In this document: one piece after another, positions 21,843 to 39,109 of the stretch
Position numbering within the stretch: the first letter of the stretch is position 1
How the letters are laid out: each line of letters opens with the position of its first letter
From: Escherichia coli
GTDB lineage: Bacteria > Pseudomonadota > Gammaproteobacteria > Enterobacterales > Enterobacteriaceae
Assembly: GCF_050320075.1 (NCBI RefSeq)
Contig: NZ_CP190018.1
Reading direction: 5' to 3' (one strand)
Length of the DNA stretch: 64,000 nt
Position numbers and translations under genes: made by a program
The notes under the pieces: generated by a model
Told to the model about the DNA's origin: nothing
Database searches by the model: none
What the model saw: only the letters and a program-made list of their open reading frames with translations

Positions 21843-24563
21843 TTATTTGTAATTATTTATTATCTCTTCAATCTTCAAAAGTGCTTGTGAGAAATCACTT
21901 AATTTCCGTGTGTTGACTATATAGCGTAATAAACCTCTGATTGTCTCTGCTTCTGAGTTAAATCTAAATCCTTTATAGTTTTCAACAAGCTTGGATACTT
22001 TCTCAGGAAGATTGTCATAGCTGTCTGAAATCTCTGATGCTAATAAAAATAATTCAAATTTAATCTTTCTTTCTTCATTGAAATCAGTTGTGGAAATATT
22101 TTTGATAAATGATTTTATTTTATCTCTATTCTTTTCTGTTGATATTCTGTACAGATCATATAGTATTGTTTCAGCAGCTCTTGCTTTATCTGTATTCGGA
22201 TAAGAACTAATTTCATGAAGTAATTTATCGACCTTGCTGTCGTCTTCTATATTAACGCCCAGTTTTTTGGCTACTGAAAAAATATTAGCAAGGCCTCTAT
22301 TGACTATAGCTATCACCTCATACCTACCAAGGTTTCTACTTATTAACTTATCGAGAATCGTGTATATTAAAGTTTTTATGCTGTCAGTGGATAAAGTTTC
22401 ACTGTGGGTGTTGTACCTTATAACGACATATTCGGAAATAGCATCATAGAATGCTAGGTTGTGGTATGAGGACTTTAAAGTGTCGTTTAATGTTTTTAAT
22501 ACTACCGCGTCTTGCTCTGTGGTTATTTTCATTAAAGATAGTAGTTTTAATGCGTTGATTAACTTTCCTTCTATAGGGTTGAGAAACGTAGCGAACTTGC
22601 TATATGACTTCGCTAGGTTTTGCAGTACAGTATTTATTAACCAATCTAATTCTTTGGGTTGAACAGACAGCGATAATAGTTTTTTATCTTCTTTCCTTAG
22701 TATAAGAGATAGGGTTTTATTATCAATGTATTTAATGCATGAATATAATTCTAATCTTGTTAGAGAAATCTCGTCTTTATCAGAATCCTTGATTATTTTT
22801 ATTTCAATGAATTTGCGAATCACATCCTTGAATTCTTTATAAACATCAATTAAACATCCATTTTTTACAACAAAAATTATAAGGTTTTCGAAAAGAAATT
22901 CCGTTTTATGAAGATCCCCGTCAACTAATAACTTTGTATTTCTTTTTCTTATATCGCTATACTTTGTTAATAATGAGCTAACGGTGTAGTGAAGATTTAA
23001 TAAATAATTAAAGGTTACTAAATCATAGATTACGGAGACGGTTTTTTTTATATTTCTCGGTAAGTTATCATATAATTCATGAATTTTATTCTCCTCAAGA
23101 GTTGAGTATCTTTCTCTATTAATTGAAAAATCATACTTCAATCTATTCAAAATAATATTTTGATTGAAAAGCGATATGAGAATATTTGCATAGTCCTTTT
23201 GTCTGATCTCTTCTGATAATTCCTCCTCTATAATACTGTAAGCCTCATCGTATTTATTTAACTGGAAGCAATTATATTTCTTAGTCTTGTCTATACTATT
23301 TGCAACCTTATGGGGGCGTGTATAGGTAACTATTTCGTTATAGTTGAAATTAATTTCCTTATCTATTTTAATTAATGAATCATTTGGTAGCACTTCAGTA
23401 ATCAGTAGCACTTCATCATGTTTATCGTTTAAAACAATACCATATATACTTGCTTTTTTTAATATAAAAAATAATTTTTGGAGATGCGGCTTATAGTCTT
23501 TAACTTTTTTATCATTACTGAGTATACTCAAAAACTTCTTATAAAATCCTCTTAGCTCTATATTATTATCATTAGAGGTTACTTCGGTGTCATAAAATTG
23601 CAATAAAGCTTTTGGTCCATTGTCATCAATATACATTAAACCGCAATTAGTGAAACATCTGGTAACTTGTTCAGCAAGTATTGCATTTAACGATTGAAGA
23701 GATCTCACTCTTGAATAAATAGCATTAATTATTTCGATATCATCTAAGTCTGCACATAGTTCTAGGCTATTTAGGCTATGCAGGAAAGTATATAACTTGT
23801 TTGAATATGAATTGTTATTGAAAGGTTTGATTGTTTCATCGGTTAAAATAATAGTGGTTATACCATGACTTTCAAGATATTTTCTTTGAGCAGGAATATC
23901 TTCGAATACTACTAAATACATAGGGGGTCTAACAGATGAATGATTCTGAGTCCATTTAATTATTTGCTTTAGATCTATATCATTATATGAATACCCCAAA
24001 AATAGCACAGTATGGGTGGAAATAACACTTTTAACATAATTTTCAATTAAGGGAAAATTGAAGCTATAATTTAAGTAATCATCTTCTTTAAAGACGATGT
24101 TGTGATTTTTAAAATCACCATGCATTTTTATCAATTTTTTGCCAAGGTAAGATTTCATCAAATCTTTGTCACTGCTTATTATATTATAAAAGTAAGATTT
24201 GGCATTTATAGCTGCTTCAAGCAAAGTGTCCCAATTCGTTGTGATAACAGAGTGAGGATTCAGTTTAAATATTAGATCGTGAATCTTTGAATGGGGAACA
24301 TTTTCAGGAAAGAAATCTTTGATTCTTTTGTAGTAAAGATGCTCACCAAATGTGAGGTAATAAAGCTGTGCTATTTTTAAATAATCTGATTCATCTTTGA
24401 TATTGAGATCTGAAATGAGAGTGTCAATTAAGTCCCCCCATGAAGGCATTTTGATAGTTTTTGTTTCAGAGGATTTTGAAACACCAGCCCCTACAAAAAT
24501 AGCTAAAGACTCCTCATCTTTTGCTCTTAAAATACTAGCTATATGTTTGTTTAGCAAATCCAT
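21843..24563 (-). CDS. Cargo gene in the satellite cos-int slot: 906-aa protein with N-terminal SIR2-like domain and long helical C-terminal region; candidate antiphage NAD+-depleting defence protein (DSR-like)
   Basis: N-terminal motifs FVGAGVS, VITTNWD, KMHGDF, LFLGYSYNDIDL resemble SIR2_2-type domains; the remaining ~650 aa are low-complexity helical repeats. Strongly AT-rich relative to the prophage backbone. Sits between cos and int. Confidence 0.55.
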   Translation of the reverse strand: MDLLNKHIASILRAKDEESLAIFVGAGVSKSSETKTIKMPSWGDLIDTLISDLNIKDESDYLKIAQLYYLTFGEHLYYKRIKDFFPENVPHSKIHDLIFKLNPHSVITTNWDTLLEAAINAKSYFYNIISSDKDLMKSYLGKKLIKMHGDFKNHNIVFKEDDYLNYSFNFPLIENYVKSVISTHTVLFLGYSYNDIDLKQIIKWTQNHSSVRPPMYLVVFEDIPAQRKYLESHGITTIILTDETIKPFNNNSYSNKLYTFLHSLNSLELCADLDDIEIINAIYSRVRSLQSLNAILAEQVTRCFTNCGLMYIDDNGPKALLQFYDTEVTSNDNNIELRGFYKKFLSILSNDKKVKDYKPHLQKLFFILKKASIYGIVLNDKHDEVLLITEVLPNDSLIKIDKEINFNYNEIVTYTRPHKVANSIDKTKKYNCFQLNKYDEAYSIIEEELSEEIRQKDYANILISLFNQNIILNRLKYDFSINRERYSTLEENKIHELYDNLPRNIKKTVSVIYDLVTFNYLLNLHYTVSSLLTKYSDIRKRNTKLLVDGDLHKTEFLFENLIIFVVKNGCLIDVYKEFKDVIRKFIEIKIIKDSDKDEISLTRLELYSCIKYIDNKTLSLILRKEDKKLLSLSVQPKELDWLINTVLQNLAKSYSKFATFLNPIEGKLINALKLLSLMKITTEQDAVVLKTLNDTLKSSYHNLAFYDAISEYVVIRYNTHSETLSTDSIKTLIYTILDKLISRNLGRYEVIAIVNRGLANIFSVAKKLGVNIEDDSKVDKLLHEISSYPNTDKARAAETILYDLYRISTEKNRDKIKSFIKNISTTDFNEERKIKFELFLLASEISDSYDNLPEKVSKLVENYKGFRFNSEAETIRGLLRYIVNTRKLSDFSQALLKIEEIINNYK

Positions 24564-24575
24564 TGTATATACCTC

Positions 24576-25739
24576 TCAATATAATTTATCTGAATACCAT
24601 TGCATCATTTTTTTTCTATGTTCAAGATATTGAGCATGATTGTAAGTCCCTCGGATTCTGTTTTTATCAACATGTGCCAATTGTATTTCAATCCATGCGC
24701 TATCAAACCCTTGTTCGTGCAATATTGTCGACATGGTATGCCGAAAACCGTGACCTGTAGCACGGCCTTTGTAGCCAATTAACTCAATCACTTGTGAAAC
24801 ACTTTCTTTTGAGATTGGCTTGCTGCGGTTGTTCCTGCCAATAAAGATGTAAGGGTAATGGCCGGTAATAGGTTTGAGCTGTTTGAAAAGGTCAACTACC
24901 TGAGTAGATAAAGGAACAATGTGAGGTCTACGCATTTTCATACGTTCCGCTGGTATCTCCCATATACCTTTTTCGAGGTCTACTTCTTCCCACGTAGCAA
25001 AGCGCATCTCCTGCGTTCTTACACCAGTCAGCATGACTATCTTCGTAGCATTTTTGGTGATGATGCTACCGGTATACGCTTCAAGATCTCGAATAAAATG
25101 AGGCAACTCTTCAGCGGATAAAAATGGATGGTGTTTTTGCTTGGGAACGGCCAGAGCGATAGCTAAATCAGGTGCAGGATTGTACTCAGCACGGCCAGTT
25201 ATGATTGCATAGCGATAAACCTCACCGCATCTTTGACGCACCTTGCGTGTTTTCTCTAGTGCTCCACGTTTTTCGATTCGTCGTAATACTTCAAGCAGTT
25301 CTAATGGTTTGATTTCACTGATAGGACGTTTACCAATGAACGGGAAGACATCTTGCTCGAATGTCTTAATGATTTCTTCTCGATAGGCCACAGTCCAGCG
25401 GTCAGCTTTGTTGGTATGCCATTCTCGACATATTGCTTCGAAAGAATTTTCTGTTGATAGCTTTTGGGCGAGTCTTAAAGCTTTGCGTTCCTCTACCGGG
25501 TCAATGCCATTAGCAACCTGCTTACGGGCGATATCACGCTTCTCACGTGCTTCTGCGAGGCTTACTAAATCGTAGCTGCCAAATGACATTAACCGCGCTT
25601 TCCCTGCAAACCGGAAACGGAAACGCCAGCCTTTCGAGCCATCGGGATTGATAAGCAATGACAGACCTTGTCCATCGTTCAATGTGTATGGCTTGTCTTG
25701 TGGTTTTGCACGTTTGATCTGTATATCGGTGAGAGCCAT
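24576..25739 (-). CDS. int: P4-family tyrosine integrase (387 aa)
   Basis: N-terminal MALTDIQIKRAKP...GKARLMSFGSYDLVSLAEAREKR and C-terminal catalytic region (HGFRHTMSTILHEQG ... RGTYNH); adjacent to the tRNA target. Confidence 0.9.
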   Translation of the reverse strand: MALTDIQIKRAKPQDKPYTLNDGQGLSLLINPDGSKGWRFRFRFAGKARLMSFGSYDLVSLAEAREKRDIARKQVANGIDPVEERKALRLAQKLSTENSFEAICREWHTNKADRWTVAYREEIIKTFEQDVFPFIGKRPISEIKPLELLEVLRRIEKRGALEKTRKVRQRCGEVYRYAIITGRAEYNPAPDLAIALAVPKQKHHPFLSAEELPHFIRDLEAYTGSIITKNATKIVMLTGVRTQEMRFATWEEVDLEKGIWEIPAERMKMRRPHIVPLSTQVVDLFKQLKPITGHYPYIFIGRNNRSKPISKESVSQVIELIGYKGRATGHGFRHTMSTILHEQGFDSAWIEIQLAHVDKNRIRGTYNHAQYLEHRKKMMQWYSDKLY

Positions 25740-25901
25740 GTGTATAACTGAAAACTACTTATAAAAAATCTATACACATTACTATACATATTTTTCGCGG
25801 ATTTAGGGAGACGATCTCGGACTGTTACGGATAAGATGATTATTCATCATATTGAATATAAAGGGTTTTATGGATCATCTCGGAACTGGCTGGATGAAGT
25901 T

Positions 25902-25996
25902 TGGCGGAAGATCACAGGAGTCGAACCTGCCCGGGACCGCTGGCGGCCCCAACTGGATTTGAAGTCCAGCCGCCTCACCGGAGACGACGATCTTCC
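25902..25996 (-). tRNA. selC: tRNA-Sec (selenocysteine tRNA), intact, 95 nt
   Basis: Reverse complement matches my recollection of E. coli selC from GGAAGATCGTCGTCTCC... to ...GATCTTCCGCCA. Confidence 0.95.
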
Positions 25997-27680: not shown

Positions 27681-29999
27681 ATGAAAATTAGCGACGGAAA
27701 CTGGTTGATTCAACCTGGCCTCAATTTGATTCACCCGCTTCAGGTGTTCGAGGTTGAACAGCAGGGTAATGAAATGGTGGTCTATGCTGCCCCTCGTGAT
27801 GTGCGTGAACGTACCTGGCAGCTTGATACGCCTTTATTTACGCTGCGCTTTTTCTCCCCACAGGAAGGTATTGTCGGTGTACGGATTGAGCATTTTCAGG
27901 GGGCGCTGAATAACGGTCCTCATTACCCGCTCAATATTTTGCAGGACGTGAAGGTCACAATCGAAAACACAGAACGTTACGCTGAGTTTAAAAGTGGCAA
28001 CTTAAGTGCGCGTGTCAGCAAAGGTGAGTTCTGGTCACTGGATTTTCTGCGTAACGGCGAACGTATTACCGGTAGTCAGGTGAAAAATAATGGCTACGTG
28101 CAGGACACGAATAATCAACGAAATTATATGTTTGAGCGGCTGGATCTTGGCGTTGGCGAAACAGTTTACGGTCTGGGAGAGCGCTTTACTGCGCTGGTGC
28201 GCAATGGCCAGACGGTAGAGACCTGGAACCGGGACGGCGGCACAAGTACTGAACAGGCGTATAAAAATATCCCGTTCTATATGACTAACCGTGGCTATGG
28301 GGTACTGGTCAATCATCCTCAATGCGTCTCTTTTGAAGTGGGATCGGAGAAAGTCTCCAAAGTGCAGTTCAGCGTTGAGAGTGAATATCTCGAATACTTT
28401 GTTATCGACGGCCCGACGCCGAAAGCGGTACTTGATCGTTATACCCGTTTTACTGGTCGTCCGGCGCTGCCGCCCGCGTGGTCCTTCGGCCTGTGGCTAA
28501 CCACTTCATTTACCACCAACTACGACGAAGCGACGGTAAACAGTTTTATCGATGGTATGGCGGAACGCAATCTGCCACTGCATGTTTTCCACTTTGACTG
28601 TTTCTGGATGAAAGCCTTCCAGTGGTGCGATTTTGAGTGGGACCCGCTGACTTTCCCGGACCCGGAAGGGATGATCCGCCGCCTGAAAGCGAAAGGGCTA
28701 AAAATCTGCGTCTGGATTAACCCCTATATCGGGCAAAAATCCCCTGTCTTTAAAGAGTTACAAGAGAAAGGCTATTTACTCAAACGCCCGGACGGTTCGT
28801 TATGGCAGTGGGATAAATGGCAGCCAGGTCTGGCGATTTATGACTTTACCAATCCGGATGCCTGCAAATGGTACGCCGACAAACTGAAAGGTCTGGTCGC
28901 GATGGGCGTTGATTGCTTTAAGACCGACTTTGGCGAACGTATTCCAACCGATGTTCAGTGGTTTGACGGTTCCGATCCGCAGAAAATGCATAACCATTAT
29001 GCGTACATCTACAACGAACTGGTGTGGAAAGTGCTCAAGGAAACCGTTGGCGAGGAAGAAGCCGTCTTGTTTGCTCGCTCGGCCTCCGTTGGTGCGCAGA
29101 AATTCCCGGTACACTGGGGTGGTGACTGTTACGCTAACTACGAATCAATGGCGGAAAGCCTGCGCGGTGGTTTGTCTATTGGCCTTTCAGGTTTTGGTTT
29201 CTGGAGCCACGATATCGGCGGCTTTGAGAATACCGCGCCGGCGCACGTTTACAAACGCTGGTGCGCGTTTGGTTTGCTCTCCAGCCATAGCCGTTTACAC
29301 GGCAGCAAATCTTATCGTGTGCCGTGGGCCTACGATGATGAGTCCTGTGATGTGGTGCGCTTCTTCACGCAACTGAAATGCCGCATGATGCCGTATCTGT
29401 ATCGTGAAGCTGCTCGTGCGAACGCGCGGGGTACGCCGATGATGCGGGCCATGATGATGGAGTTTCCGGACGATCCGGCTTGTGATTACCTTGACCGTCA
29501 ATACATGTTAGGCGACAACGTGATGGTTGCGCCTGTGTTCACTGAATCGGGCGATGTGCAGTTCTACTTGCCTGAAGGTCGCTGGACACACCTGTGGCAC
29601 AACGATGAACTCGATGGTAGTCGCTGGCATAAACAGCAGCACAGCTTCCTGAGTCTGCCCGTTTATGTGCGTGATAACACCCTACTGGCGCTGGGCAACA
29701 ACGAGCAACGTCCCGATTACGCGTGGCACGAAGGCACGGCATTCCAGCTCTTTAATCTACAAGACGGGCATGAAGCCATCTGTGAAGTGCCCGCTGCTGA
29801 CGGTTCCGTTCTTTTCACCCTGAAAGCGGCGCGTACTGGCAACACGATTACTGTGACTGGTGCGGGCGAGGCGAAGAACTGGACACTGTGCTTGCGCAAT
29901 ATTGTGAAAGTAAATGGTCTGCAAGGCGGTTCGCAGGCTGAAAGTGAGCAGGGACTGGTGGTGACTCCTCAAGGGAATGCGCTGACAATTACGTTGTAA
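27681..29999 (+). CDS. yicI: Family 31 glycoside hydrolase, alpha-xylosidase
   Basis: 772 aa; GH31 catalytic region (WINPY ... KTDFGERIP ... HWGGD). Confidence 0.9.
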
Positions 30000-30013
30000 T
30001 CTATTGAAGAATG

Positions 30014-30044
30014 CCGGATACGAATGGTTTTGTGTCGTATCCGG
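30014..30044. terminator. Stem-loop (10-bp arms CCGGATACGA / TCGTATCCGG) just after yicI; possible terminator
   Basis: Inverted repeat read directly; not followed by a clear T-run. Confidence 0.35.
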
Positions 30045-30293
30045 TAAATAATCTCACATCTGGTAATAAATATTTCTTCCATCGTATTTGCGAGCATGAT
30101 CACGATTATTCATCACGAAAATGTGATCTGTGCCGAAAAATATCTATTAACCGCCCCGTTTTGTTTTATACATGTCCGGACTACGGACAGATTTTAGTAT
30201 TGTTGTGAAATTATTCTGCTTTATATTTACCCTCAGAGATGGCAACTGAAGCTCTTCCACATGGGGCTTCTTAATCTGTGATAAGGGTAAAAA

Positions 30294-31847
30294 ATGCAAA
30301 TGATTACCTCGCGACAAAACAGATTATTACGATTCCTTTTACCACGAAGGGAATATACGACTATTGTTACGATTGCCGGCTATTTAAATGTTTCGGAAAA
30401 AACCATTCAACGTGATTTACGTTTACTTGAGCAATGGCTGGAACAATGGCGAATAACCGTTGAGAAGCGTGCTGGCGCGGGTGTGATGTTAGACTCGAAG
30501 AATATTACTGATTTGCTGCATCTTGATCATTTGTTGGGAGCAGAATGTGAAGAGATTGATGGTGTAATGAATAATGCCAGGCGCGTTAAAATAGCGTCGC
30601 AGTTATTAAGTGAAACACCGAATGAAACGTCGATCAGTAAATTGTCAGAGCGCTATTTTATCAGTGGAGCCTCTATTGTTAATGACCTGAGAGTGATTGA
30701 GTCCTGGCTTGCGCCGTTGGGGTTATCATTGATCCGCAGCCCAAGTGGTACGCATATTGAAGGTAGTGAAGGGCAAGTCCGACAGGCAATGGCATTACTG
30801 ATTAACGGCATTATTAACCATAATGAGCCGCAAGGTGTCGTGTATTCACGTCTGGATCCCGGAAGTTATAAAGCATTAGTCCATTATTTTGGAGAAGAAG
30901 AGGTGTTATTTGTCCAGTCATTGTTACTGGATATGGAAAATGAATTAAGTTGGTCTTTGGGAGAGCCTTATTACGTTAACATTTTTACTCACATCCTTAT
31001 TATGATGTATCGCAACACGCACGGGAATGCGTTATCCAGAGAAGAAGATCAAACCAGGCAATATGATGAAAATATCTTTAATGTTGCCAGTCAGATGATT
31101 CATAAGATAGAACAACGAATTGCACATACATTGCCCGATGATGAAGTCTGGTTTATTTATCAATATATCATTTCATCAGGTGTGGCGATTGATGGACAAA
31201 AAGATGTGAGCATTATTTCACATATGCAGGCCAGCAATGAAGCGCGTCTGATTACCTGGCGTTTAATTACGGTATTCAGTGACATCGTGGACTGCGATTT
31301 TAGTGAAGACAGCGCATTATATGATGGCTTGTTGGTTCATATTAAGCCGCTGATTAACCGACTAAATTATCGCATTCATATCCGTAATCCATTGCTGGAA
31401 GATATTAAAGCAGAATTAGCGGATGTCTGGCGGTTGACGCAATATGTGGTGAATCAGGTATTTAAAACCTGGGGTGAGAATGCAGTGAGCGAGGATGAAG
31501 TAGGTTACCTGACCGTTCATTTTCAGGCTGCGATGGAGCGGCAAATTGCCCGTAAACGTGTATTACTGGTCTGTTCAACCGGAATCGGAACTTCGCATCT
31601 ACTGAAAAGCCGTATTCTGCGAGCATTTCCTGAATGGACGATTGTTGATGTTATTTCAGCAGCGAATTTATCACAGGTTTTGCCTGACAATATCGAACTG
31701 ATTATTTCGACCATTAATTTGCCTACAGTCACTATGCCGGTCGCTTATGTTACCGCTTTTTTTAATGATGCCGATATTAAGCGGGTCACTGAAATGGTGA
31801 TTACGGAAAAATTACATCATGCGACATCTCGGGTCGTTGAAATTTAA
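30294..31847 (+). CDS. PRD-domain transcriptional regulator (BglG/LicR/MtlR-like: N-terminal HTH, PRD region, C-terminal EIIB-like domain)
   Basis: 517 aa; HTH (TIVTIAGYLNVSEKTIQRDLRLLEQ) and C-terminal KRVLLVCSTGIGTSHLL EIIB-like motif. Confidence 0.75.
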   Translation: MQMITSRQNRLLRFLLPRREYTTIVTIAGYLNVSEKTIQRDLRLLEQWLEQWRITVEKRAGAGVMLDSKNITDLLHLDHLLGAECEEIDGVMNNARRVKIASQLLSETPNETSISKLSERYFISGASIVNDLRVIESWLAPLGLSLIRSPSGTHIEGSEGQVRQAMALLINGIINHNEPQGVVYSRLDPGSYKALVHYFGEEEVLFVQSLLLDMENELSWSLGEPYYVNIFTHILIMMYRNTHGNALSREEDQTRQYDENIFNVASQMIHKIEQRIAHTLPDDEVWFIYQYIISSGVAIDGQKDVSIISHMQASNEARLITWRLITVFSDIVDCDFSEDSALYDGLLVHIKPLINRLNYRIHIRNPLLEDIKAELADVWRLTQYVVNQVFKTWGENAVSEDEVGYLTVHFQAAMERQIARKRVLLVCSTGIGTSHLLKSRILRAFPEWTIVDVISAANLSQVLPDNIELIISTINLPTVTMPVAYVTAFFNDADIKRVTEMVITEKLHHATSRVVEI

Positions 31848-31873
31848 TGTCAGAATTTTATGAGGTATGACGA

Positions 31874-32344
31874 ATGGACATAACAAAAATCCTGAATACG
31901 AATCGCGTTATTTTAGATATGCAAGCGACGAATAAAGCGGAGGCGATTGAAGAATTAACTAATCTTCTCAAAAAAGATGGTGCGATCGATTGTCGGGAAA
32001 CCTTTATTAAAGATGTCTGGCAGCGCGAAGCGGAAGGCTCGACTGGTTTTGAAAATCATATTGCGATCCCGCATGGTAAATCTTCTGCGGTAATTAATAC
32101 CACGCTGGCTATCGGGCGTACCCGGCAGGATATTCCCTGGGAAACACTGGATGGCAGTAGCGTACGCTGTATTATTTTATTTGCGGTACGTCTTGAAGAT
32201 CAAAATACCACTCATATCCGTTTACTTTCCCAGGTCGCGGGCGCGCTTGCAGATGATGACATCATAGCGCAATTGCTGGTTGAGACGAGCCCGCAAAAAA
32301 TCATTGATCTCTTTAGTCAGTATGCACAATCCGATGTCTACTAA
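31874..32344 (+). CDS. PTS EIIA component, fructose/mannitol (EIIA-2) family
   Basis: 156 aa; conserved HIAIPHGK histidine motif. Confidence 0.8.
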   Translation: MDITKILNTNRVILDMQATNKAEAIEELTNLLKKDGAIDCRETFIKDVWQREAEGSTGFENHIAIPHGKSSAVINTTLAIGRTRQDIPWETLDGSSVRCIILFAVRLEDQNTTHIRLLSQVAGALADDDIIAQLLVETSPQKIIDLFSQYAQSDVY

Positions 32345-32361
32345 ATAACAGGGAGTATATC

Positions 32362-32676
32362 ATGAATATTGTCTGTGTTGCCGCCTGCACGGCGGGTATT
32401 GCTCACACCTATATTGCTCGTGAAAAGTTAATTAAAGGGGCAAAAGCACTGGGCCACACCATTAAAGTTGAAACCCAGGGAACCATTGGTACAGAAAACG
32501 AATTACAGGCGGCAGAGATCTCTGCTGCTGACGTCGTGATTCTTGCTGTGGATGTGAAAATAAAAGGAGAAGAACGTTTTACCAATAAACGCATTGTGCG
32601 AGTAAAGACAGAGATCGTCATTAAATCGCCCGTTCAATTTCTTGAAAAGGTCGAAAAATCACTGGGAAATAAATGA
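32362..32676 (+). CDS. PTS EIIB component, fructose type
   Basis: 104 aa; active-site cysteine context VAACTAGIAHTYIA. Confidence 0.8.
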   Translation: MNIVCVAACTAGIAHTYIAREKLIKGAKALGHTIKVETQGTIGTENELQAAEISAADVVILAVDVKIKGEERFTNKRIVRVKTEIVIKSPVQFLEKVEKSLGNK

Positions 32677-32700
32677 TCCTTATACTGGAGGGATCTTAAT

Positions 32701-33792
32701 ATGAAAGAAAATAAAATTCCGGTTTCACAGGAAATTAAAAAACATTTATTAACCGGCATCTCGTGGATGATACCCCTTATTGTGGCCGCCGGGATATGTA
32801 TTGCGTTGGGGCAAGTTCTTGGCGGTACAGATGTTGGTGAAAAAACAGGAACAATCCCGTGGATGCTTAATCAGATTGGCGGCTGGGGAATGGGGCTGAT
32901 TGTGCCGCTGATTAGCGCGGCAATTGCCTATTCTATTGCCGATCGTCCCGGATTTGCCCCGGGCCTGATTGTCGGCTTTCTCTGTGGGCAAATCCATACC
33001 GGATTTATTGGCGGTATGTTGGGTGGTTTCCTGGTGGGCTACACCATTTTGCTACTTAAACGCTATATTCGCCTGCCGCAGTCGATGCAAGGACTCATGC
33101 CAATCATGGTGTTACCGGTATTGAGCACCATTATTGGTGGTCTGTTAATGATGACGCTGATTGGTAAACCCATCGCCTGGTTACAAGAAGCACTGATTCA
33201 TTTGCTCGAGTCGATGCAGGGCGGATCGCGCTTCCTGATGGGGGCCATACTTGGCGCGATGGCAACCTTCGATTTCGGTGGTCCGGTCAACAAAACCATG
33301 TCGCTGTTTTCCGATGGCTTGCTGGTCAGTGGCGTCTACGGACCAGAAGCCGTGAAATTTGTCGGCTCAATCATCCCTCCGTTTGGCATCACACTTTCGT
33401 TCTTACTGACACGCCATAAATACACCCGTGCGGAGCGCGAGGCGCTGAAAGCCGCGTTTCCGATGGGGATCTGCATGATCACTGAAGGAGTCATTCCGAT
33501 CGCCGCGCGTGACCTGTTGCGAGTAGTGGGATCTTGTGTGGTGGCATCGGCGGTCGCGGGCGGCTTAATCATGGTGTGGGGCGTGGAGAGTCCGGTTCCA
33601 CATGGCGGCATGTTTGTTGTGCCTCTGTTCACCCATCCTCTGCTGTTTTGCCTGGCGCTGGGTATAGGCACGGTGATTTGTGGCGTGATGCTTTCACTCT
33701 GGAAGAAACCGGTAACGGAACGCGACGAAGAGTTTGACGAACTGAGCGATCAAAAGCTGAAAGATGAAGAGATCACTTTCACCCTCGAATAA
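32701..33792 (+). CDS. PTS EIIC permease, fructose-like family
   Basis: 363 aa polytopic membrane protein directly after EIIA/EIIB. Confidence 0.8.
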   Translation: MKENKIPVSQEIKKHLLTGISWMIPLIVAAGICIALGQVLGGTDVGEKTGTIPWMLNQIGGWGMGLIVPLISAAIAYSIADRPGFAPGLIVGFLCGQIHTGFIGGMLGGFLVGYTILLLKRYIRLPQSMQGLMPIMVLPVLSTIIGGLLMMTLIGKPIAWLQEALIHLLESMQGGSRFLMGAILGAMATFDFGGPVNKTMSLFSDGLLVSGVYGPEAVKFVGSIIPPFGITLSFLLTRHKYTRAEREALKAAFPMGICMITEGVIPIAARDLLRVVGSCVVASAVAGGLIMVWGVESPVPHGGMFVVPLFTHPLLFCLALGIGTVICGVMLSLWKKPVTERDEEFDELSDQKLKDEEITFTLE

Positions 33793-33803
33793 CCGGAGGC
33801 CCT

Positions 33804-34655
33804 ATGTTTGCCGATATGAAAAGTATGGTGATGAAAGCCTGGCATGAACATTACGCCTTGCTGGCGATCAACTGTATGAATCTGGAAAGTGCTCACGCAG
33901 CTATCCGCGTGGCGGAGAAGAATCGCGCTCCGATCATTCTCAATCTCTATCAGGGGCATCTGGCGCATTTTCCTGCACCCGTCGCGGCGGCAGTGGTTAA
34001 AACGCTCGCGGAATCTGCCTCAGTACCGGTCGCTCTGGCGCTTGATCATGGCAAAAATCCGGACTGTATTCGTCAGGCGTTTCGTGCTGGTTTCAGCGGA
34101 TTAATGATTGATGCTTCTGCTTTTCCCCTGGAGGAAAACGTGCGCCAGACCAGGGCGGTGGTGGAACTCGCCGCCAGCGCGCAGCTCTGCGTGGAAGGCG
34201 AACTGGGCCATCTGGCAGATGCGCCGCGTTACGACCAGGCCGCCAATGCAGACCTGATGACGCAACCCACTGATGTGGAACCGTTTATCGCGCAGACAGG
34301 CATTGATCTACTGGCCGTCTCGGTAGGCACGGCGCACGGCATGTACGCGCCTGGTGTTGTACCTGCTATTGATTTTCAGCGTCTGGCGGAGATTTTCCAC
34401 TGCTCGAGCGTGCCTCTGGCATTACATGGCGGTAGCGGTACGCCGTTCGATCAGCTCCAGCTCTGTACGACGCTGGGGGTAGCAAAAATCAACGTGGGGG
34501 CGGCCATTTTTGAACGGGGGAAATCCGCGCTCCTGCATACCCTCTGTCACGATATATCCATTGAACTGGTGGACGCGCTGAAAGCTATGGAACTGGCCTT
34601 CGAAGAAGCGATTACACCGTATTTACAGGCGAGCGGCTCTATAGGCAAAGCCTGA
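33804..34655 (+). CDS. Class II (metal-dependent) ketose-bisphosphate aldolase family protein, paralogue 1
   Basis: 283 aa; LALDHGK and LHGGSG blocks typical of FbaA/GatY/KbaY-type aldolases. Confidence 0.75.
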   Translation: MFADMKSMVMKAWHEHYALLAINCMNLESAHAAIRVAEKNRAPIILNLYQGHLAHFPAPVAAAVVKTLAESASVPVALALDHGKNPDCIRQAFRAGFSGLMIDASAFPLEENVRQTRAVVELAASAQLCVEGELGHLADAPRYDQAANADLMTQPTDVEPFIAQTGIDLLAVSVGTAHGMYAPGVVPAIDFQRLAEIFHCSSVPLALHGGSGTPFDQLQLCTTLGVAKINVGAAIFERGKSALLHTLCHDISIELVDALKAMELAFEEAITPYLQASGSIGKA

Positions 34656-34735
34656 TTCATTTTCTGTCATGGCCTTTATGCCAGTGCAATAACGCACCGG
34701 CAGGGCGGACTACACGCTGAAACTGGAGATTTAAC

Positions 34736-35596
34736 ATGTTAGTTTCGATGAAAGAATTACTGCAACCTACCCGCCAGCACGGCTTTGCCATTGGCGCATT
34801 TAATGTGGCGGATAACTGTTTCCTTCGCGCAGTCGTGGATGAAGCAGAAGCGACAAATACTCCGACGATTATTGCCATCCATCCCAGCGAACATGATTTT
34901 GTGGGCGATGCCTTTTTCGCTCACGTTCGCGAAATTACCCAGCGTAGTCCGGTCCCGTTTGTACTGCACCTCGATCATGGTGCCTCTGTAGAGCATGTTT
35001 TGCGTGCGATTCGCTGCGGATTTACCTCAGTAATGATCGACGGTTCGCTGCTGCCGTATGAAGAAAACGTGGCGCTGACCGCAGAAGTGGTTCGCCTCGC
35101 TCACGCGGTTGGAGTGTCGGTTGAGGGTGAACTGGGAACCATCGGACAAACAGGAACGTCGGTAGAAGGTGGTGTTTCACAAGTGACCTACACAGATCCG
35201 GCGCAGGCCGCCGATTTTATTGCTCGTACAGGTGCCGACACACTGGCTGTGGCGATTGGTACAGCGCATGGCATCTATCCAAAAGGGATGCAGCCGAAGC
35301 TGCAAATGGACATTTTGCGCGACATTGCCGGGCGCATTGATATTCCATTGGTGTTGCACGGTGGTTCGGCAAATCCGGACGCGGAGATTGCTGAATCAGT
35401 TACGCTCGGCGTTGGCAAAATCAATATCTCCAGCGATATGAAATACGCCTATTTCCAGAAAGTGCGTGAAATTCTCGCCAAAGAGAGCTGGTGGGATCCG
35501 AACGTCATCTATCCGGATGCGATTAACGCGGCGCGGGAAGTCATTCGCCACAAAATGAAACTGTTCGGTTCGCTCGGTAAAGCATCACTGTACTAA
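34736..35596 (+). CDS. Class II (metal-dependent) ketose-bisphosphate aldolase family protein, paralogue 2
   Basis: 286 aa; LHLDHGAS, GELG, AIGTAHG, LVLHGGSA blocks. Confidence 0.8.
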   Translation: MLVSMKELLQPTRQHGFAIGAFNVADNCFLRAVVDEAEATNTPTIIAIHPSEHDFVGDAFFAHVREITQRSPVPFVLHLDHGASVEHVLRAIRCGFTSVMIDGSLLPYEENVALTAEVVRLAHAVGVSVEGELGTIGQTGTSVEGGVSQVTYTDPAQAADFIARTGADTLAVAIGTAHGIYPKGMQPKLQMDILRDIAGRIDIPLVLHGGSANPDAEIAESVTLGVGKINISSDMKYAYFQKVREILAKESWWDPNVIYPDAINAAREVIRHKMKLFGSLGKASLY

Positions 35597-35643
35597 GCCA
35601 GAAGGGCGGGATGACCCGCCTTTTACGCAACAAGGAACGAGAT

Positions 35644-36576
35644 ATGCACTATCTGGGGTTGGATATTGGTGGGACCAAAATCGCCGCCGTCGTCATGGAT
35701 GCGCATGGCTGGGAGATTCGCCGTTACCGCTGCCCGACGCAAAAGTCGACATATCAACAATTTGTCTCATGCGTTGTGGCGCTTATCGAGCAGATTAGGC
35801 GGGACGTTCAACGACCGATGCTGACAGGGGTCGCCTTACCCGGCAGTATCTCGCCACTCACTGGCCTGATTAAAAACGCGAATATTCAGGTGATTAACGG
35901 TCATGCGTTACAGGCTGATTTGCAGCAATTGCTTGGGCAACCGGTGGTGATAGCCAATGATGGTAACTGTTTCGCGCTATCAGAAGCTTGCGACGGTGCC
36001 GGGCAAGATTATGACGTAGTATTTGGTATTACGCTTGGTACAGGCTGCGGCGGTGGCATTGCCATCAAGCAACGACCGTTTATAGGGGCCTGGGGAAATG
36101 CTGCCGAATGCGGTCATATCACGTTGCCAGGCTATATGGAGCAGGAAGATGGTCCATCAGTCAGTTGCTATTGCGGCAAACACAACTGCGTGGAGTCGTT
36201 TGTTTCCGGCAGCGGTTTTAGTGAACGCTATCAACAGATGACTGGTAACTTGCTCACTCCTGCGGCGATTGTCACCCTGGCACAACGTGGTGATGCTTGT
36301 GCCATGCAGCAGGTGGCACGTTTTCGCCAACAGCTTGCCCGCACGCTGGCAACCATCGTTAACGTTGTTGACCCTGGCGTGATTGTCATCGGCGGCGGGC
36401 TTTCGAATGTGGAACTGCTTATCACCGATCTGAACGCAGAAGTCGCTCCACTGGTTTTCACCGATCAATTCACCACTCCCATTGTAAAAGCACAGCACGG
36501 CGACAGTAGCGGAATGCGTGGCGCTGCCTGGCTTGCTATGCGCAACGGAGAAGCCAATGAAACGTTCACAAATTAA
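35644..36576 (+). CDS. ROK-family sugar kinase
   Basis: LGLDIGGTKIA N-terminal ATP motif and ROK zinc motif CYCGKHNCVESFVSG. Start placed at MHYLGLDIGG; the ORF track starts 11 codons earlier at 35611. Confidence 0.75.
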   Translation: MHYLGLDIGGTKIAAVVMDAHGWEIRRYRCPTQKSTYQQFVSCVVALIEQIRRDVQRPMLTGVALPGSISPLTGLIKNANIQVINGHALQADLQQLLGQPVVIANDGNCFALSEACDGAGQDYDVVFGITLGTGCGGGIAIKQRPFIGAWGNAAECGHITLPGYMEQEDGPSVSCYCGKHNCVESFVSGSGFSERYQQMTGNLLTPAAIVTLAQRGDACAMQQVARFRQQLARTLATIVNVVDPGVIVIGGGLSNVELLITDLNAEVAPLVFTDQFTTPIVKAQHGDSSGMRGAAWLAMRNGEANETFTN

Positions 36577-37237
36577 TTATGTTATTGATAAAGCACATGC
36601 CATTGCGCAGACCTTCCGCGTTTGTTTGCCAGAGTTCGCCTATTTTACGGTGGATGACTGGCTGCAGCGGGAACGGGATAACTGGCAAGAAGTGGTCGAC
36701 TTACAGCTCGGTTGGGATATCACCGATTTTGGTCGTGGTGATTTCAACCAAACGGGACTAACACTGCTAACGATGCGCAACGGCGCGCTGGGGGCGGCGG
36801 CATATCCAAAACCGTATGCTGAGAAAATGTTGCAGATCCAACAAGATCAGCAGACTCCCTGGCATTTTCACACCCACAAAATGGAAGATATCCTCAATCG
36901 GGGCGGTGGAGACTTATGCATGCAGTTGGCCTGGGCCAACGAAGCCAATCTCTGTGATGATCAGCGGGTTATTACCGTGAGTGTTGATGGTCAGCGGCGT
37001 GCCGTGAAACCTGGTGAAACGCTGGTGCTAAAGCCGGGGCAGGGCATTTGCCTGCCGCCGCGTCTGTATCATCGCTTCTGGGCGGAAAAAGCGTTTGTTC
37101 TCGGCTGGGAAATTTCGATGGTAAATGATGACCAACATGATAACCATTTTCTTGAGCCGGGAGGACGTTTTCCGGCGATAGAAGAAGATGAACCGGTGAA
37201 ATGGTTATTGTGTAGTGAGTATGCTGTTTTGCGGTAA
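36557..37237 (+). CDS. Cupin-type sugar isomerase-like protein (D-lyxose/mannose ketol-isomerase-like), tentative
   Basis: About 226 aa from MKRSQINYV; His-rich WHFHTHKMEDI metal-site-like motif. Start overlaps the ROK kinase 3' end by 20 nt. Family call is tentative. Confidence 0.45.
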   Translation: MKRSQINYVIDKAHAIAQTFRVCLPEFAYFTVDDWLQRERDNWQEVVDLQLGWDITDFGRGDFNQTGLTLLTMRNGALGAAAYPKPYAEKMLQIQQDQQTPWHFHTHKMEDILNRGGGDLCMQLAWANEANLCDDQRVITVSVDGQRRAVKPGETLVLKPGQGICLPPRLYHRFWAEKAFVLGWEISMVNDDQHDNHFLEPGGRFPAIEEDEPVKWLLCSEYAVLR

Positions 37238-37279
37238 TAGCGGGGACGCTAACGTTGATATCCGTTAGCGCCCGCGTAT

Positions 37280-38989
37280 TTACTGCACCGGCTCCGTCGA
37301 TGTAACTTCGCCACTGGAAACGACGCCTGCATTCATGGTTTGAGTCACTTGCTGCTTTGTGGCGTTCACGGCATGCAATTGCCCGCTAACCGTAGGTTTC
37401 AGCGGGATATTGGCCTGAATATCGCCGCTGGCGGTAAGCTGAATATTGCCGTCGCCAGTCAACGGTAATTCAGGCCATCCCCACTGTTGCAAAATATTCA
37501 CCGGCACACCGCGTCCATTCAGGCTGATATGGGTCTGACGTTGTGGCGTTTGTGAAACACTGGCGGTGGCTTCCAGAATGCCTTTTTCAGTAAATGCACT
37601 CAGTTCGCTGATATTCACCGTGCTGCTGTTGGCGGTCAGCGCCAGCGATGGGCGACGAACATCAACACGATTAAATGTCGCGGCGGCGGCATTCAGATTC
37701 GCCGAACCACTCCAGACGCCCCATTTATGATCGGTAACCAGCGTCAGGTTGGCACCGTAACCATCGAGCGCGGTGAGCTGCCACGGGAAGTCAGGGTCGA
37801 TATCAATGATCAGATTGCGGCTGGCGCTAAATCTCTTCAGTTGCAGGCTGTTTAACCAACCGGGTGTTGTTTCCATCCACAACTGTTGCCAGTTTTTTGG
37901 CAAGGTATATTCCAGTCCGGCAATTGCCGCATCATCGAGGATCAGCGTTTTCCCGTCGCGTTGCCAGTTTCCTGACGTTCTGACCATACCCCCTTCCCAG
38001 CGGCTGGTGAACTGGCGCAGCGCTACGCCCTGCGGGGAAAATTCCGCGTTTATAATCGGGTCAAATAAATGCAGCGAACCATAAATGAACTCGCTGGCGT
38101 TCATCGACAGTTTGCCTTCCTGTGTCTGCCAGCCATCTTTACTGAAGGTCATGTTGCGCAAGCTGAGATCGAGGTCGGTCACCGCCCAGTCCGGACCTTG
38201 CAAACGAGCATCGATCACTTCCAGGCGACCAATCTGCAACGACGGGACAGAGCGTAATGGCGCAAAGAAGTCGGTTAGCGATTTTTCGCTTTGTAGACGG
38301 ATATCCGCCATGCGCAGATTTTCCACTTGCCAGCTGCCGTCGGCGTTACGCTGCGCGTTTCCGGTTAATGTCCCGCGGGCGATGTCGGCACCCAGGTTAG
38401 TCAGCGTAACGCGATCGTTATCAATACTGCCTTCAATCAGTACATTGGTGGCAGGAACATCATTGAGCGAAAGCGATCCGGCACTAAACTGAATCTGCGC
38501 CTTCGTACCCAGCACTTTACCGGCTTCTGGTGACCACGGAACCACGCCGCCATTTACCCGCTGCGCGCTCAGTTTCCATTCGCTATTCGGGCTATTAAAC
38601 GCCATATCACGCAGTTGCAGACGATCGGCTTTGAACGGTAGCGGCGCGGTCTGGTCGGTGAGATTCAGCGTCCCGTTTTCCAGCAGGATGGTATCGACAT
38701 GGCGTGGTTCGGTCAGTTGCCGACTGCTTAGCGCAATGTCGACACTTTTTGCCACCAGGGTCGCGGGCTGGCCATCACGGCCGAACGTGACGTTCTCCAG
38801 CACGATATGAGATGGCGCGGAAAAACGGTGATCCATCGCCCCGAAGGCCAGATGATAGTCGCTATTCTCGGAAACCCATGCGCTGATATGTTCTGCTCCC
38901 CAGCGGGTTTGCAGAAGAAAATAGAGGCCAGCGATCACCACTAACAGAGCGATGAAAATGTAGAGAAGCAGCTTCCCAATAAATTTCAT
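37280..38989 (-). CDS. yicH: AsmA-family protein YicH
   Basis: 569 aa from MKFIGKLLLYIFIALLVVIAGLYFL (N-terminal membrane anchor); conserved position next to xanP. Confidence 0.85.
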   Translation of the reverse strand: MKFIGKLLLYIFIALLVVIAGLYFLLQTRWGAEHISAWVSENSDYHLAFGAMDHRFSAPSHIVLENVTFGRDGQPATLVAKSVDIALSSRQLTEPRHVDTILLENGTLNLTDQTAPLPFKADRLQLRDMAFNSPNSEWKLSAQRVNGGVVPWSPEAGKVLGTKAQIQFSAGSLSLNDVPATNVLIEGSIDNDRVTLTNLGADIARGTLTGNAQRNADGSWQVENLRMADIRLQSEKSLTDFFAPLRSVPSLQIGRLEVIDARLQGPDWAVTDLDLSLRNMTFSKDGWQTQEGKLSMNASEFIYGSLHLFDPIINAEFSPQGVALRQFTSRWEGGMVRTSGNWQRDGKTLILDDAAIAGLEYTLPKNWQQLWMETTPGWLNSLQLKRFSASRNLIIDIDPDFPWQLTALDGYGANLTLVTDHKWGVWSGSANLNAAAATFNRVDVRRPSLALTANSSTVNISELSAFTEKGILEATASVSQTPQRQTHISLNGRGVPVNILQQWGWPELPLTGDGNIQLTASGDIQANIPLKPTVSGQLHAVNATKQQVTQTMNAGVVSSGEVTSTEPVQ

Positions 38990-39109
38990 GGTCTTCCATC
39001 CCGTGAAATGCACATAAGGGAGTTATGCACGATTTACGCGCAATCCTCAAGGCGGGAATGGTGAAAGAGGTGAGACTGCGGCGGTAATTATCTTACCGCC
39101 GCCAGTGAA

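Follow-up and report, generated by a model that had tools for sequence, protein, structure and literature searches.

Among the described systems close to the genes considered here are GatY-GatZ and KbaY-KbaZ, in which the partner proteins GatZ and KbaZ form a separate family with His, His and Glu as metal ligands and further active-site substitutions, and act as 4-epimerases of fructose 6-phosphate and tagatose 6-phosphate (PMC11907403). Class II fructose-1,6-bisphosphate (FBP) aldolases hold the 6-phosphate with Ser49 and Arg259 of one protomer and Arg280 of the partner protomer (numbering of the Helicobacter pylori enzyme, HpFBA), and SqiA, a class II sulfofructose-1-phosphate aldolase, carries Ala257 where the partner Arg280 stands (PMC10665668). 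Dihydroxyacetone phosphate (DHAP) is deprotonated by a Glu of the mobile β6-α8 loop, Glu182 in Escherichia coli FbaA. In the known tagatose route, the product of the phosphotransferase system (PTS) needs a dedicated tagatose-1-phosphate kinase before GatY acts (PMC10101011). The present analysis concerns two class II aldolase genes, Ald1 and Ald2, which lie head to tail on the plus strand of a 64,000-nucleotide segment of the E. coli chromosome (contig NZ_CP190018.1; this whole stretch is referred to as the window). The genes belong to the already known frz operon of extraintestinal pathogenic E. coli (ExPEC). Their products are tentatively read as two active, non-redundant aldolases of different specificity that would cleave one or more PTS-derived ketose 1-phosphates.

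Two class II aldolases of the frz operon

The open reading frame of Ald1 occupies exactly 33804-34655 (+, 283 aa) and that of Ald2 34736-35596 (+, 286 aa). RefSeq annotates the same coding sequences in a 100% identical E. coli locus, under the names 'class II fructose-bisphosphate aldolase' (Ald1) and 'ketose-bisphosphate aldolase' (Ald2). Both proteins match the family profile PF01116 (F_bP_aldolase) end to end, over profile positions 1-277, and score far above its cutoff of 25.5 bits (Ald1, 253.6 bits, E 3e-75; Ald2, 304.3 bits, E 1e-90). They are 33% identical to one another over their full length (BLASTP E 3e-44), and the C-terminal ~50 residues are the most divergent part. The initial annotation had described the pair as tandem, substantially diverged paralogues of class II (zinc) aldolases, and the profile matches and the level of identity bear this out. 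The signature motifs that it quoted (LALDHGK against LHLDHGAS) were found, as 'ALALDHGKN' in Ald1 and 'VLHLDHGAS' in Ald2, along with the divergent C-terminal regions.

At the level of subfamily the two proteins separate. Ald2 belongs to NF006042 (the PRK08185 subfamily), with 524.5 bits against a curated cutoff of 405. Ald1 scores 172 bits with the same model, which places it outside the subfamily, and it lies under every NCBIfam cutoff, the best being TIGR01859 (210 versus 343). Among models for FBP and tagatose-1,6-bisphosphate (TBP) aldolases, the best for Ald2 are PRK12857 (279 versus 423) and TIGR01858 (229 versus 444). Both proteins fall short of every NCBIfam equivalog cutoff for FBP or TBP aldolases.

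Modelled by AlphaFold2 from an alignment of 38 sequences, Ald1 is predicted to form a complete (β/α)8 barrel (pLDDT 94.7, pTM 0.93), with confident C-terminal arm helices α8 and α8a at residues 233-249 and 255-277. The model superimposes on solved class II aldolases with template modelling (TM) scores of 0.85-0.93. The top Foldseek matches are structures of SqiA (TM 0.91); because all class IIb aldolases fall within TM 0.85-0.93, this ranking was not used as evidence of specificity. By every sequence and fold criterion tested, Ald1 and Ald2 are ordinary members of PF01116.

Catalytic core and selection

Catalytic residues were located in an alignment of Ald1 and Ald2 with E. coli KbaY, GatY, YdjI and FbaA, with roles assigned from published work (PMC11194214, PMC10665668), and conservation was counted in 75 non-redundant Ald1/Ald2 pairs drawn from 78 paired loci. 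Ald1 and Ald2 are both CATALYTICALLY equipped, the core residues being kept in 75/75 sequences of each lineage. In FbaA numbering these are N35, D109, H110, D144, E172, E174, H226, G227, H264, G265, S267, K284 and N286, which cover the zinc ligands, the acid/base Asp and the DHAP phosphate site (G227, G265, S267, K284, N286). The zinc-binding His residues and the equivalent of Glu174 correspond to H82, H178, H208 and E133 in Ald1, and to H81, H178, H208 and E132 in Ald2, and are likewise present in all 75 orthologues of each.

In pairwise comparisons of close species, dN/dS lies at 0.03-0.10 in Ald1 and 0.002-0.04 in Ald2, and both genes are under strong purifying selection. Neither protein is decayed or a merely structural subunit. 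A degenerate, inactive accessory role for Ald1 was considered and rejected on the basis of the complete core, the dN/dS values and the confident structural model. The initial annotation had raised the possibility of a catalytic/accessory pair, with an inactive partner in the manner of GatZ or KbaZ, and had proposed an alignment of the metal-binding His and catalytic Asp residues as a check. In that alignment every one of these residues is kept in both proteins and in all pairs. Because of this, and because dN/dS is well below 0.1, the inactive-partner reading is not supported.

In some E. coli assemblies (L089:2661-3516, L090:2661-3516) Ald1 has lost 1 bp at nucleotide 322, which shifts the frame after residue 107; in these strains Ald2 and the remainder of the operon are intact. 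The allele occurs in many short-read assemblies, and the full-length gene is found in 29 of the 29 complete genomes sampled. The frameshift may be a sequencing or assembly error.

Differences between Ald1 and Ald2

The two lineages evolve at different rates. Between E. coli and Enterococcus or Sebaldella, orthologues of Ald1 are 38-43% identical and those of Ald2 60-69%; invariant columns number 47 of 283 in Ald1 and 96 of 286 in Ald2. The rate of evolution of Ald1 is 2-5 times that of Ald2. The lineages carry different fixed residues at 16 positions, several of them in the acceptor pocket. The column of FbaA D288, for example, holds Gly in all Ald1 and Ser in all Ald2 sequences.

The mobile loop is also different. 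The column of FbaA E182 is occupied by E142 in KbaY and by Gly in Ald2, which has a conserved Glu, E144, ~4 residues further on ('TG[TN][ST][VI]EGG'); the loop is flexible, and the alignment alone is indecisive as to whether the two are equivalent. In Ald1 the loop reads 'ELGHx[AG]DAPxY' in Enterobacterales and 'xNMGAVxG' in Firmicutes. No loop acid of Ald1 is conserved across phyla, Asp139 being present in Enterobacterales and no acid in Firmicutes, with the same caution that alignment of this flexible loop is indecisive.

The pair also departs from bisphosphate aldolases at the positions that bind the distal phosphate in those enzymes. KbaY R257 and SqiA A257 share a column in a direct KbaY-SqiA alignment, and KbaY K236 is matched in the Thermus enzyme by the Arg of 'DLR'. 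At distal positions 49, 236 and 256, the last two matching KbaY 236 and 257, Ald1 has Tyr (67/75), Phe (69/75) and a small residue or Pro (Ala, Val, Pro or Ser), and Ald2 has His, Lys and Asn, each in 75/75; the distal ligand position in the β2 loop is equated by alignment only, within ~1 residue. The Arg that the partner subunit contributes to the 6-phosphate site is absent from all 75 Ald1 and all 75 Ald2 sequences. Thus Ald1 keeps none of the three distal-phosphate ligands and Ald2 keeps Lys236, the equivalent of HpFBA Arg259. Taken together, an acceptor pocket with Y49, F236, G232 and a small residue at 256 in Ald1 stands against one with H49, K236, S232 and N256 in Ald2. In addition, Y49 and H52 are specific to the Ald1 lineage, and an arm motif, W253-D-P-N256-x-x-Y-P260, is essentially invariant in Ald2. 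As an alternative to the accessory pair, the initial annotation had proposed distinct substrate or stereo-specificities, a suggestion that these lineage-invariant differences in pocket and loop support.

Co-inheritance and origin of the pair

A scan with the Ald1 alignment against one genome per species (~100,000 species) returned 71 loci, which were combined with loci obtained through protein look-ups. The order regulator-EIIA-EIIB-EIIC-Ald1-Ald2, in which EIIA, EIIB and EIIC are the components of the PTS enzyme II, is found in 78 loci, with one more in which Ald2 is split (L010). The paired loci span ~18 enterobacterial genera together with Marinilactibacillus, Enterococcus, Pediococcus, Lactobacillus, Streptococcus and Sebaldella. 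In two further Ald1 loci the sequence stops within 300 bp of Ald1. Clear Ald1-type genes are always followed by Ald2 where downstream sequence exists. The sole locus with downstream sequence and no Ald2 is in a metagenome-assembled genome of the Erysipelotrichaceae (L081). It was discarded as an exception to the pairing: its aldolase scores nearly equally with Ald1 and Ald2 (200 and 182 bits) and lies beside genes for a transaldolase/fructose-6-phosphate aldolase (FSA) and a dehydrogenase, which marks it as a different system. An apparent occurrence of Ald2 without Ald1 in Pectobacterium and Erwinia proved to be wrong, as Ald1 is present in both and merely fell outside the top-120 list.

Ald1 and Ald2 form two deep clades whose internal branching patterns mirror each other. 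Their mutual identity of 33% equals their identity to GatY, KbaY and YdjI, and a recent tandem duplication was rejected on these grounds. Because of the two deep clades, the level of identity and the mirrored branching, the sequences indicate that Ald1-Ald2 is an old, co-transferred pair of ancient lineages and not a local duplication.

No kinase was found in the conserved six-gene core, and the loci of Pantoea, Erwinia and Pectobacterium and most of those in Firmicutes consist of the six genes only. A pathway kinase of the PfkB, 1-phosphofructokinase (1-PFK) or TagK type was not found in the cluster; an optional ROK-family kinase is the only one, and it is absent from many orthologous loci. 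The ROK kinase and a lyxose/mannose isomerase are optional additions that recur in different phyla, the latter as a cupin gene after Ald2 in Marinilactibacillus, Sebaldella and one metagenome contig. In one metagenome contig the optional additions include a type I mannose-6-phosphate isomerase (PMI).

The chromosomal position of the core varies by genus. It lies between parC and parE in Pantoea (L007) and Erwinia (L017), upstream of parE and beside a gene for a TonB-dependent receptor in Pectobacterium (L015), inside a nif gene cluster in Brenneria (L009), and between yicI and yicH in Enterobacteriaceae. The module has therefore moved between sites.

The nearest relatives of Ald2 outside the pair (49-54% identity) are solo aldolases encoded with PTS components or sugar kinases. 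One cluster (L091:30-4880) has the order EIIA-aldolase-EIIB-EIIC-lyxose isomerase-FGGY kinase. In other single examples the aldolase comes after a regulator with EIIA/B/C and before a four-carbon acid-sugar kinase, accompanies a glucose-type PTS and an iron-containing alcohol dehydrogenase, or lies beside an FGGY kinase. A PfkB-type 1-phosphofructokinase adjoins none of these solo relatives, and their residue 256 is never Arg. An isomerase-kinase-aldolase logic is familiar from the pathways for fucose and rhamnose, and the L091 cluster resembles a pathway of that type with a PTS added. On one metagenome contig (L011:1-3470), a PRD regulator, one Ald2-like aldolase and a fused EIIABC lie directly upstream of a full frz-like cluster.

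Proposed function and alternatives

Fructose-family enzymes II phosphorylate ketoses at C1, as when FruA yields fructose 1-phosphate. The Frz PTS would likewise take up a ketose and phosphorylate it at C1. The resulting ketose 1-phosphate would then be split directly, with no second phosphorylation, to DHAP and an unphosphorylated aldehyde. Since the core is free of kinases and neither pocket is shaped to take a further phosphate, the PTS probably makes a ketose 1-phosphate, which would be cleaved as such. Ald2 would be the principal lyase, since it is twice as conserved as Ald1, keeps a loop Glu and occurs alone in related clusters. Ald1, with its uncharged aromatic pocket, would handle a different stereoisomer or substrate variant. 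The optional tail genes (lyxose/mannose isomerase, ROK kinase, PMI) may bring the corresponding free aldose into the pathway or recover a free sugar product, and such roles would fit the action of the tail isomerase and kinases on unphosphorylated sugars. This reading as a whole, with a monophosphate substrate, a division of labour and independent activity of the two proteins, is the one that we favour, although we hold it at somewhat less than even confidence.

Several points weigh against it. No biochemical study of Ald1 or Ald2 was found. Ald1 has no conserved mobile-loop acid and therefore may be a poor lyase on its own, and in Ald2 Lys236 and His49 might yet hold an anion at the distal site. 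Two strictly co-occurring enzymes would more often be expected to catalyse successive steps or to form a complex than to work in parallel with different specificities. The usual reaction of ROK kinases is phosphorylation of free hexoses at C6, which has no obvious place in a route through a C1 phosphate. Host kinases could also turn the ketose 1-phosphate into a bisphosphate, and FruK, which may be one of them, contributes to tagatose use in evolved E. coli (PMC10101011).

A bolder version, to which we give clearly less credence, is that Ald1 and Ald2 form an obligate module of two enzymes, either consecutive or joined in a hetero-oligomer with two kinds of active site, that defines a new kinase-free route from PTS to aldolase. 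In this route a rare ketose would receive its C1 phosphate during uptake and be split without further activation into DHAP and a free aldehyde or aldose, and the bisphosphate-aldolase annotation of both proteins would be wrong. If true, this module would extend from Firmicutes and Fusobacteriota to Enterobacterales and would underlie the fitness and virulence phenotypes of frz in ExPEC. Strict co-inheritance would fit a physical Ald1-Ald2 complex, and the gene order, fixed across phyla, is also as expected for an obligate hetero-oligomer (e.g. an α2β2 dimer of dimers) that needs both gene products and in which the C-terminal arms line the active site of the partner. In this fold α8 and α8a form a dimerisation arm, and residue 257 of the partner reaches the active site (PMC10665668); the arm motif of Ald2 is essentially invariant and the arm helices of Ald1 are confidently folded. 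The faster evolution of Ald1 (2-5 times, with 47 against 96 invariant columns) is of the kind often seen in partner subunits, and GatY and KbaY are reported to need GatZ and KbaZ for full activity (PMC10101011). However, the active site of Ald1 is complete in 75/75 sequences, unlike that of GatZ and KbaZ with their altered metal ligands (PMC11907403), Ald2-like enzymes occur in related clusters without an Ald1-like partner, and the genes are not translationally coupled, a spacer of 80-96 nt with a hairpin separating them in Enterobacterales. We regard an obligate hetero-oligomer as unlikely, though it stands ahead of the explanations that follow.

That the proteins are true ketose-1,6-bisphosphate aldolases, for example one of FBP type (4R) and the other of TBP type (4S), acting after a kinase of the host or the operon, would make the finding routine, and we think it improbable. 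Their scores to FBP and TBP models are good, RefSeq names them accordingly, Ald2 keeps K236 as the equivalent of HpFBA Arg259, E. coli has FruK, and the known tagatose route runs from PTS through tagatose-1-phosphate kinase to GatY (PMC10101011). Yet those scores stop short of every FBP and TBP equivalog cutoff, the partner Arg is missing throughout both lineages and all three ligands are missing from Ald1, and the core carries no kinase, the optional one being of ROK and not of PfkB or 1-PFK type. A further candidate role for Ald1 is that of a C4 epimerase, which would work by retro-aldol and aldol steps and make the stereoisomer that Ald2 cleaves. Such sequential action would explain the strict co-inheritance, and there are precedents in the class II aldolase fold in GatZ and KbaZ (PMC11907403), FbaA (PMC5434028) and UxaE (PMC11194214). 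The retained zinc and DHAP-site residues of Ald1, its lack of a conserved loop acid and its lineage-specific Y49 and H52 are compatible with this role. Epimerisation by FbaA, however, needs Asp288, Tyr328 and Glu182 (PMC5434028), and Ald1 has Gly at 288 and no loop acid; a search of Ald1 for this signature gave no specific support, the equivalents of D288, Y328 and E182 all being absent. Ald1 also shows none of the metal-ligand changes of GatZ, and an epimerase plus a lyase is less economical than one lyase of the right stereospecificity, so that we rate this role as quite improbable. Least probable by far is functional redundancy, with both genes kept by chance or for dosage: membership of one family and one operon and the frameshifted Ald1 allele of some E. 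coli strains could be read that way, but both genes persist in all sampled lineages of the three phyla, dN/dS stays below 0.1, and 16 positions, several in the acceptor pocket, are fixed differently.

Intercistronic hairpin

The 80-nt spacer between Ald1 and Ald2 (34656-34735) contains a conserved RNA stem-loop at 34672-34706 (+), identified by folding and covariation, with a minimum free energy of -18.4 kcal/mol and a z-score of -3.7. The spacer is 78-96 nt long in most Enterobacterales loci versus 15-37 nt in Firmicutes, and its sequence is poorly conserved. The hairpin is limited to Enterobacterales and is absent from Firmicutes. In 32 distinct spacers, pairing covers 86% of the cells of a 9-bp helix, compared with 23-49% in slid controls; because the helix was derived from the same 32 spacers, the figure of 86% is inflated, which does not apply to the compensatory changes. 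The latter are seen in six of the nine pairs, and 0/500 shuffles match the observed pairing or covariation. Frequent U-G pairs point to an RNA of the sense strand. No U-tract follows it, and there is no Rfam match in 29900-37400. Scans for a promoter or terminator between the two genes gave no more than chance, and these elements were set aside. A role in mRNA processing or stability is plausible, through which the hairpin would tune expression of the upstream cistron relative to that of the downstream one.

Operon identity and flanking genes

The aldolase genes are part of an eight-gene block inserted between yicI, which ends at 29999, and yicH (37280-39013, minus strand). The block is found in 1601-1604 of 5426 complete E. 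coli genomes (~30%). The genomic region GR27, of 7227 bp between yicH and yicI, is the frz operon (PMC12928451), and the accessory ~7.2-kb block with these flanks was confirmed at the same position in the window. Its content is a PRD regulator, a fructose-type PTS (EIIA/B/C), the two class II aldolases, a ROK kinase and a cupin protein. The published frz operon reportedly has the same genes. It was described in ExPEC strain BEN2908 by Rouquet et al. in 2009 (J Bacteriol 191:4427), where the aldolases were reportedly termed 'two type II ketose-1,6-bisphosphate aldolases'.

All eight genes lie on the plus strand. The first (30294-31847) encodes an frzR-type regulator in which Pfam recognises HTH_11, Mga, two PRD and EIIB-like domains. 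RefSeq names it a 'BglG family transcription antiterminator'. A Pfam scan did not find a CAT RNA-binding domain in it, and it looks more like a DNA-binding activator of the MtlR/LicR/Mga type than an RNA antiterminator. The PTS genes follow, for an EIIA of the fructose/mannitol family (31874-32344; PF00359, TIGR00848 above cutoff), a fructose-type EIIB (32362-32676; PF02302, TIGR00829 above cutoff) and a fructose-type EIIC (32701-33792; TIGR01427, 311 bits versus a cutoff of 157). Downstream of Ald2 are the two optional tail genes. The ROK-family sugar kinase (35644-36576; PF00480) has its start codon as in RefSeq, but the start is ambiguous between 35611, 35644 and 35656; its top NCBIfam match is the fructokinase model PRK09557 (318 bits, under the cutoff of 443). 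The last gene (36557-37237) encodes a cupin protein of the D-lyxose/D-mannose isomerase family (PF07385, 289.6 bits), which scores 270.8 bits with NF051472, under the cutoff of 350. As annotated, the kinase and cupin genes overlap by 20 nt (36557-36576).

Elsewhere in the window, after a tRNA-Sec gene (selC, 25902-25996, minus strand) comes the gene of a P4-type integrase (24576-25739). Beside the integrase lies a gene for a 906-aa protein with a SIR2-like domain (21843-24563), in DNA of only 30% GC, and a primase-helicase is encoded at 15140-17473. The region 21843-25996 has the appearance of an island associated with selC, and one of its genes may serve in defence. A low-GC region at 33-9418 encodes an invasin/Big_1 repeat protein (33-3149), a regulator of OmpR type with tetratricopeptide repeats (HilA-like, 3201-4898), a protein resembling a type III secretion tip-complex component (5101-6450) and a SipB/IpaB-like translocator (7637-9418). 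We take this region to resemble the eip/eil/air locus near selC.

Significance

Two aldolase paralogues in a sugar operon will not surprise a specialist, and it is already known that these genes are part of a named operon. What is new is the obligate pairing across phyla, the differences between the pockets, the probable mis-annotation and the hairpin. The operon is of interest for its phenotypes: frz is tied to virulence of ExPEC and avian pathogenic E. coli (APEC), and published effects include fitness in late stationary phase, expression of type 1 fimbriae and invasion (PMC8777976, PMC12928451), the fitness effect being seen under oxygen restriction (PMC8777976, PMC8069529). Reviews list the function of frz as not clearly known (PMC8777976, PMC8069529), one of them naming the substrate and the roles of the two aldolases in particular (PMC8069529). 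The old question of the Frz substrate is now more testable. With both aldolases intact, always accompanied by a PTS and lacking a clamp for another phosphate, the field of candidates shrinks to rare ketoses that are split at the 1-phosphate stage. The name 'fructose-bisphosphate aldolase', which is probably over-specific, has spread to many enterobacterial and Firmicutes genomes.

Comparison with known systems

Ald1 and Ald2 share with the FBP aldolases (E. coli FbaA and the H. pylori and Thermus aquaticus enzymes) the zinc ligands, Asp109, Asn35, Glu174 and the DHAP phosphate site. They differ from FbaA in overall sequence (25% identity), in the 6-phosphate ligands, which are not kept, and in the mobile loop, where the conserved Glu of Ald2 lies ~4 residues away from the column of Glu182 and no acid is conserved in Ald1. 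By equivalog score, 6-phosphate ligands and cluster kinase alike, the two proteins differ from the FBP and TBP aldolases.

The likeness to GatY-GatZ and KbaY-KbaZ is one of arrangement. In each case a class II aldolase gene lies beside the gene of a homologous TIM-barrel partner in a PTS sugar operon, and the genes are adjacent and co-inherited, Ald1 preceding Ald2 in the 78 loci and in the one with a split Ald2. Unlike GatZ and KbaZ, Ald1 matches only PF01116 and keeps the three His residues, Asn35 and Asp109. GatY and KbaY also have the 6-phosphate ligand Arg257, which both Ald1 and Ald2 lack. Judged by these residues, Ald1-Ald2 is not a pair of the GatY/GatZ type.

SqiA (PDB 8Q57-8Q5A) and YdjI (PDB 6OFU), the latter of which cleaves a ketose 1-phosphate, share the fold and the catalytic core with Ald1 and Ald2, and the loop 'ELGH...Y' of Ald1 resembles that of YdjI. 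Differences lie in the identity, which is only ~30%, and in the genomic context, a PTS operon for frz as against sulfoglycolysis or the ydj cluster. The sequence records of 8Q57-8Q5A label these sulfofructose-1-phosphate aldolase chains 'Tagatose-1,6-bisphosphate aldolase kbaY' and 'Ketose-bisphosphate aldolase', which illustrates how bisphosphate-aldolase names are put on PF01116 enzymes with other substrates. The position of the partner Arg is non-cationic in all of these proteins, with Ala257 in SqiA, Leu in YdjI, Ala, Val, Pro or Ser in Ald1 and Asn in Ald2. At this one diagnostic position, Ald1 and Ald2 resemble SqiA and YdjI, enzymes whose ketose substrates carry a phosphate at C1 only.

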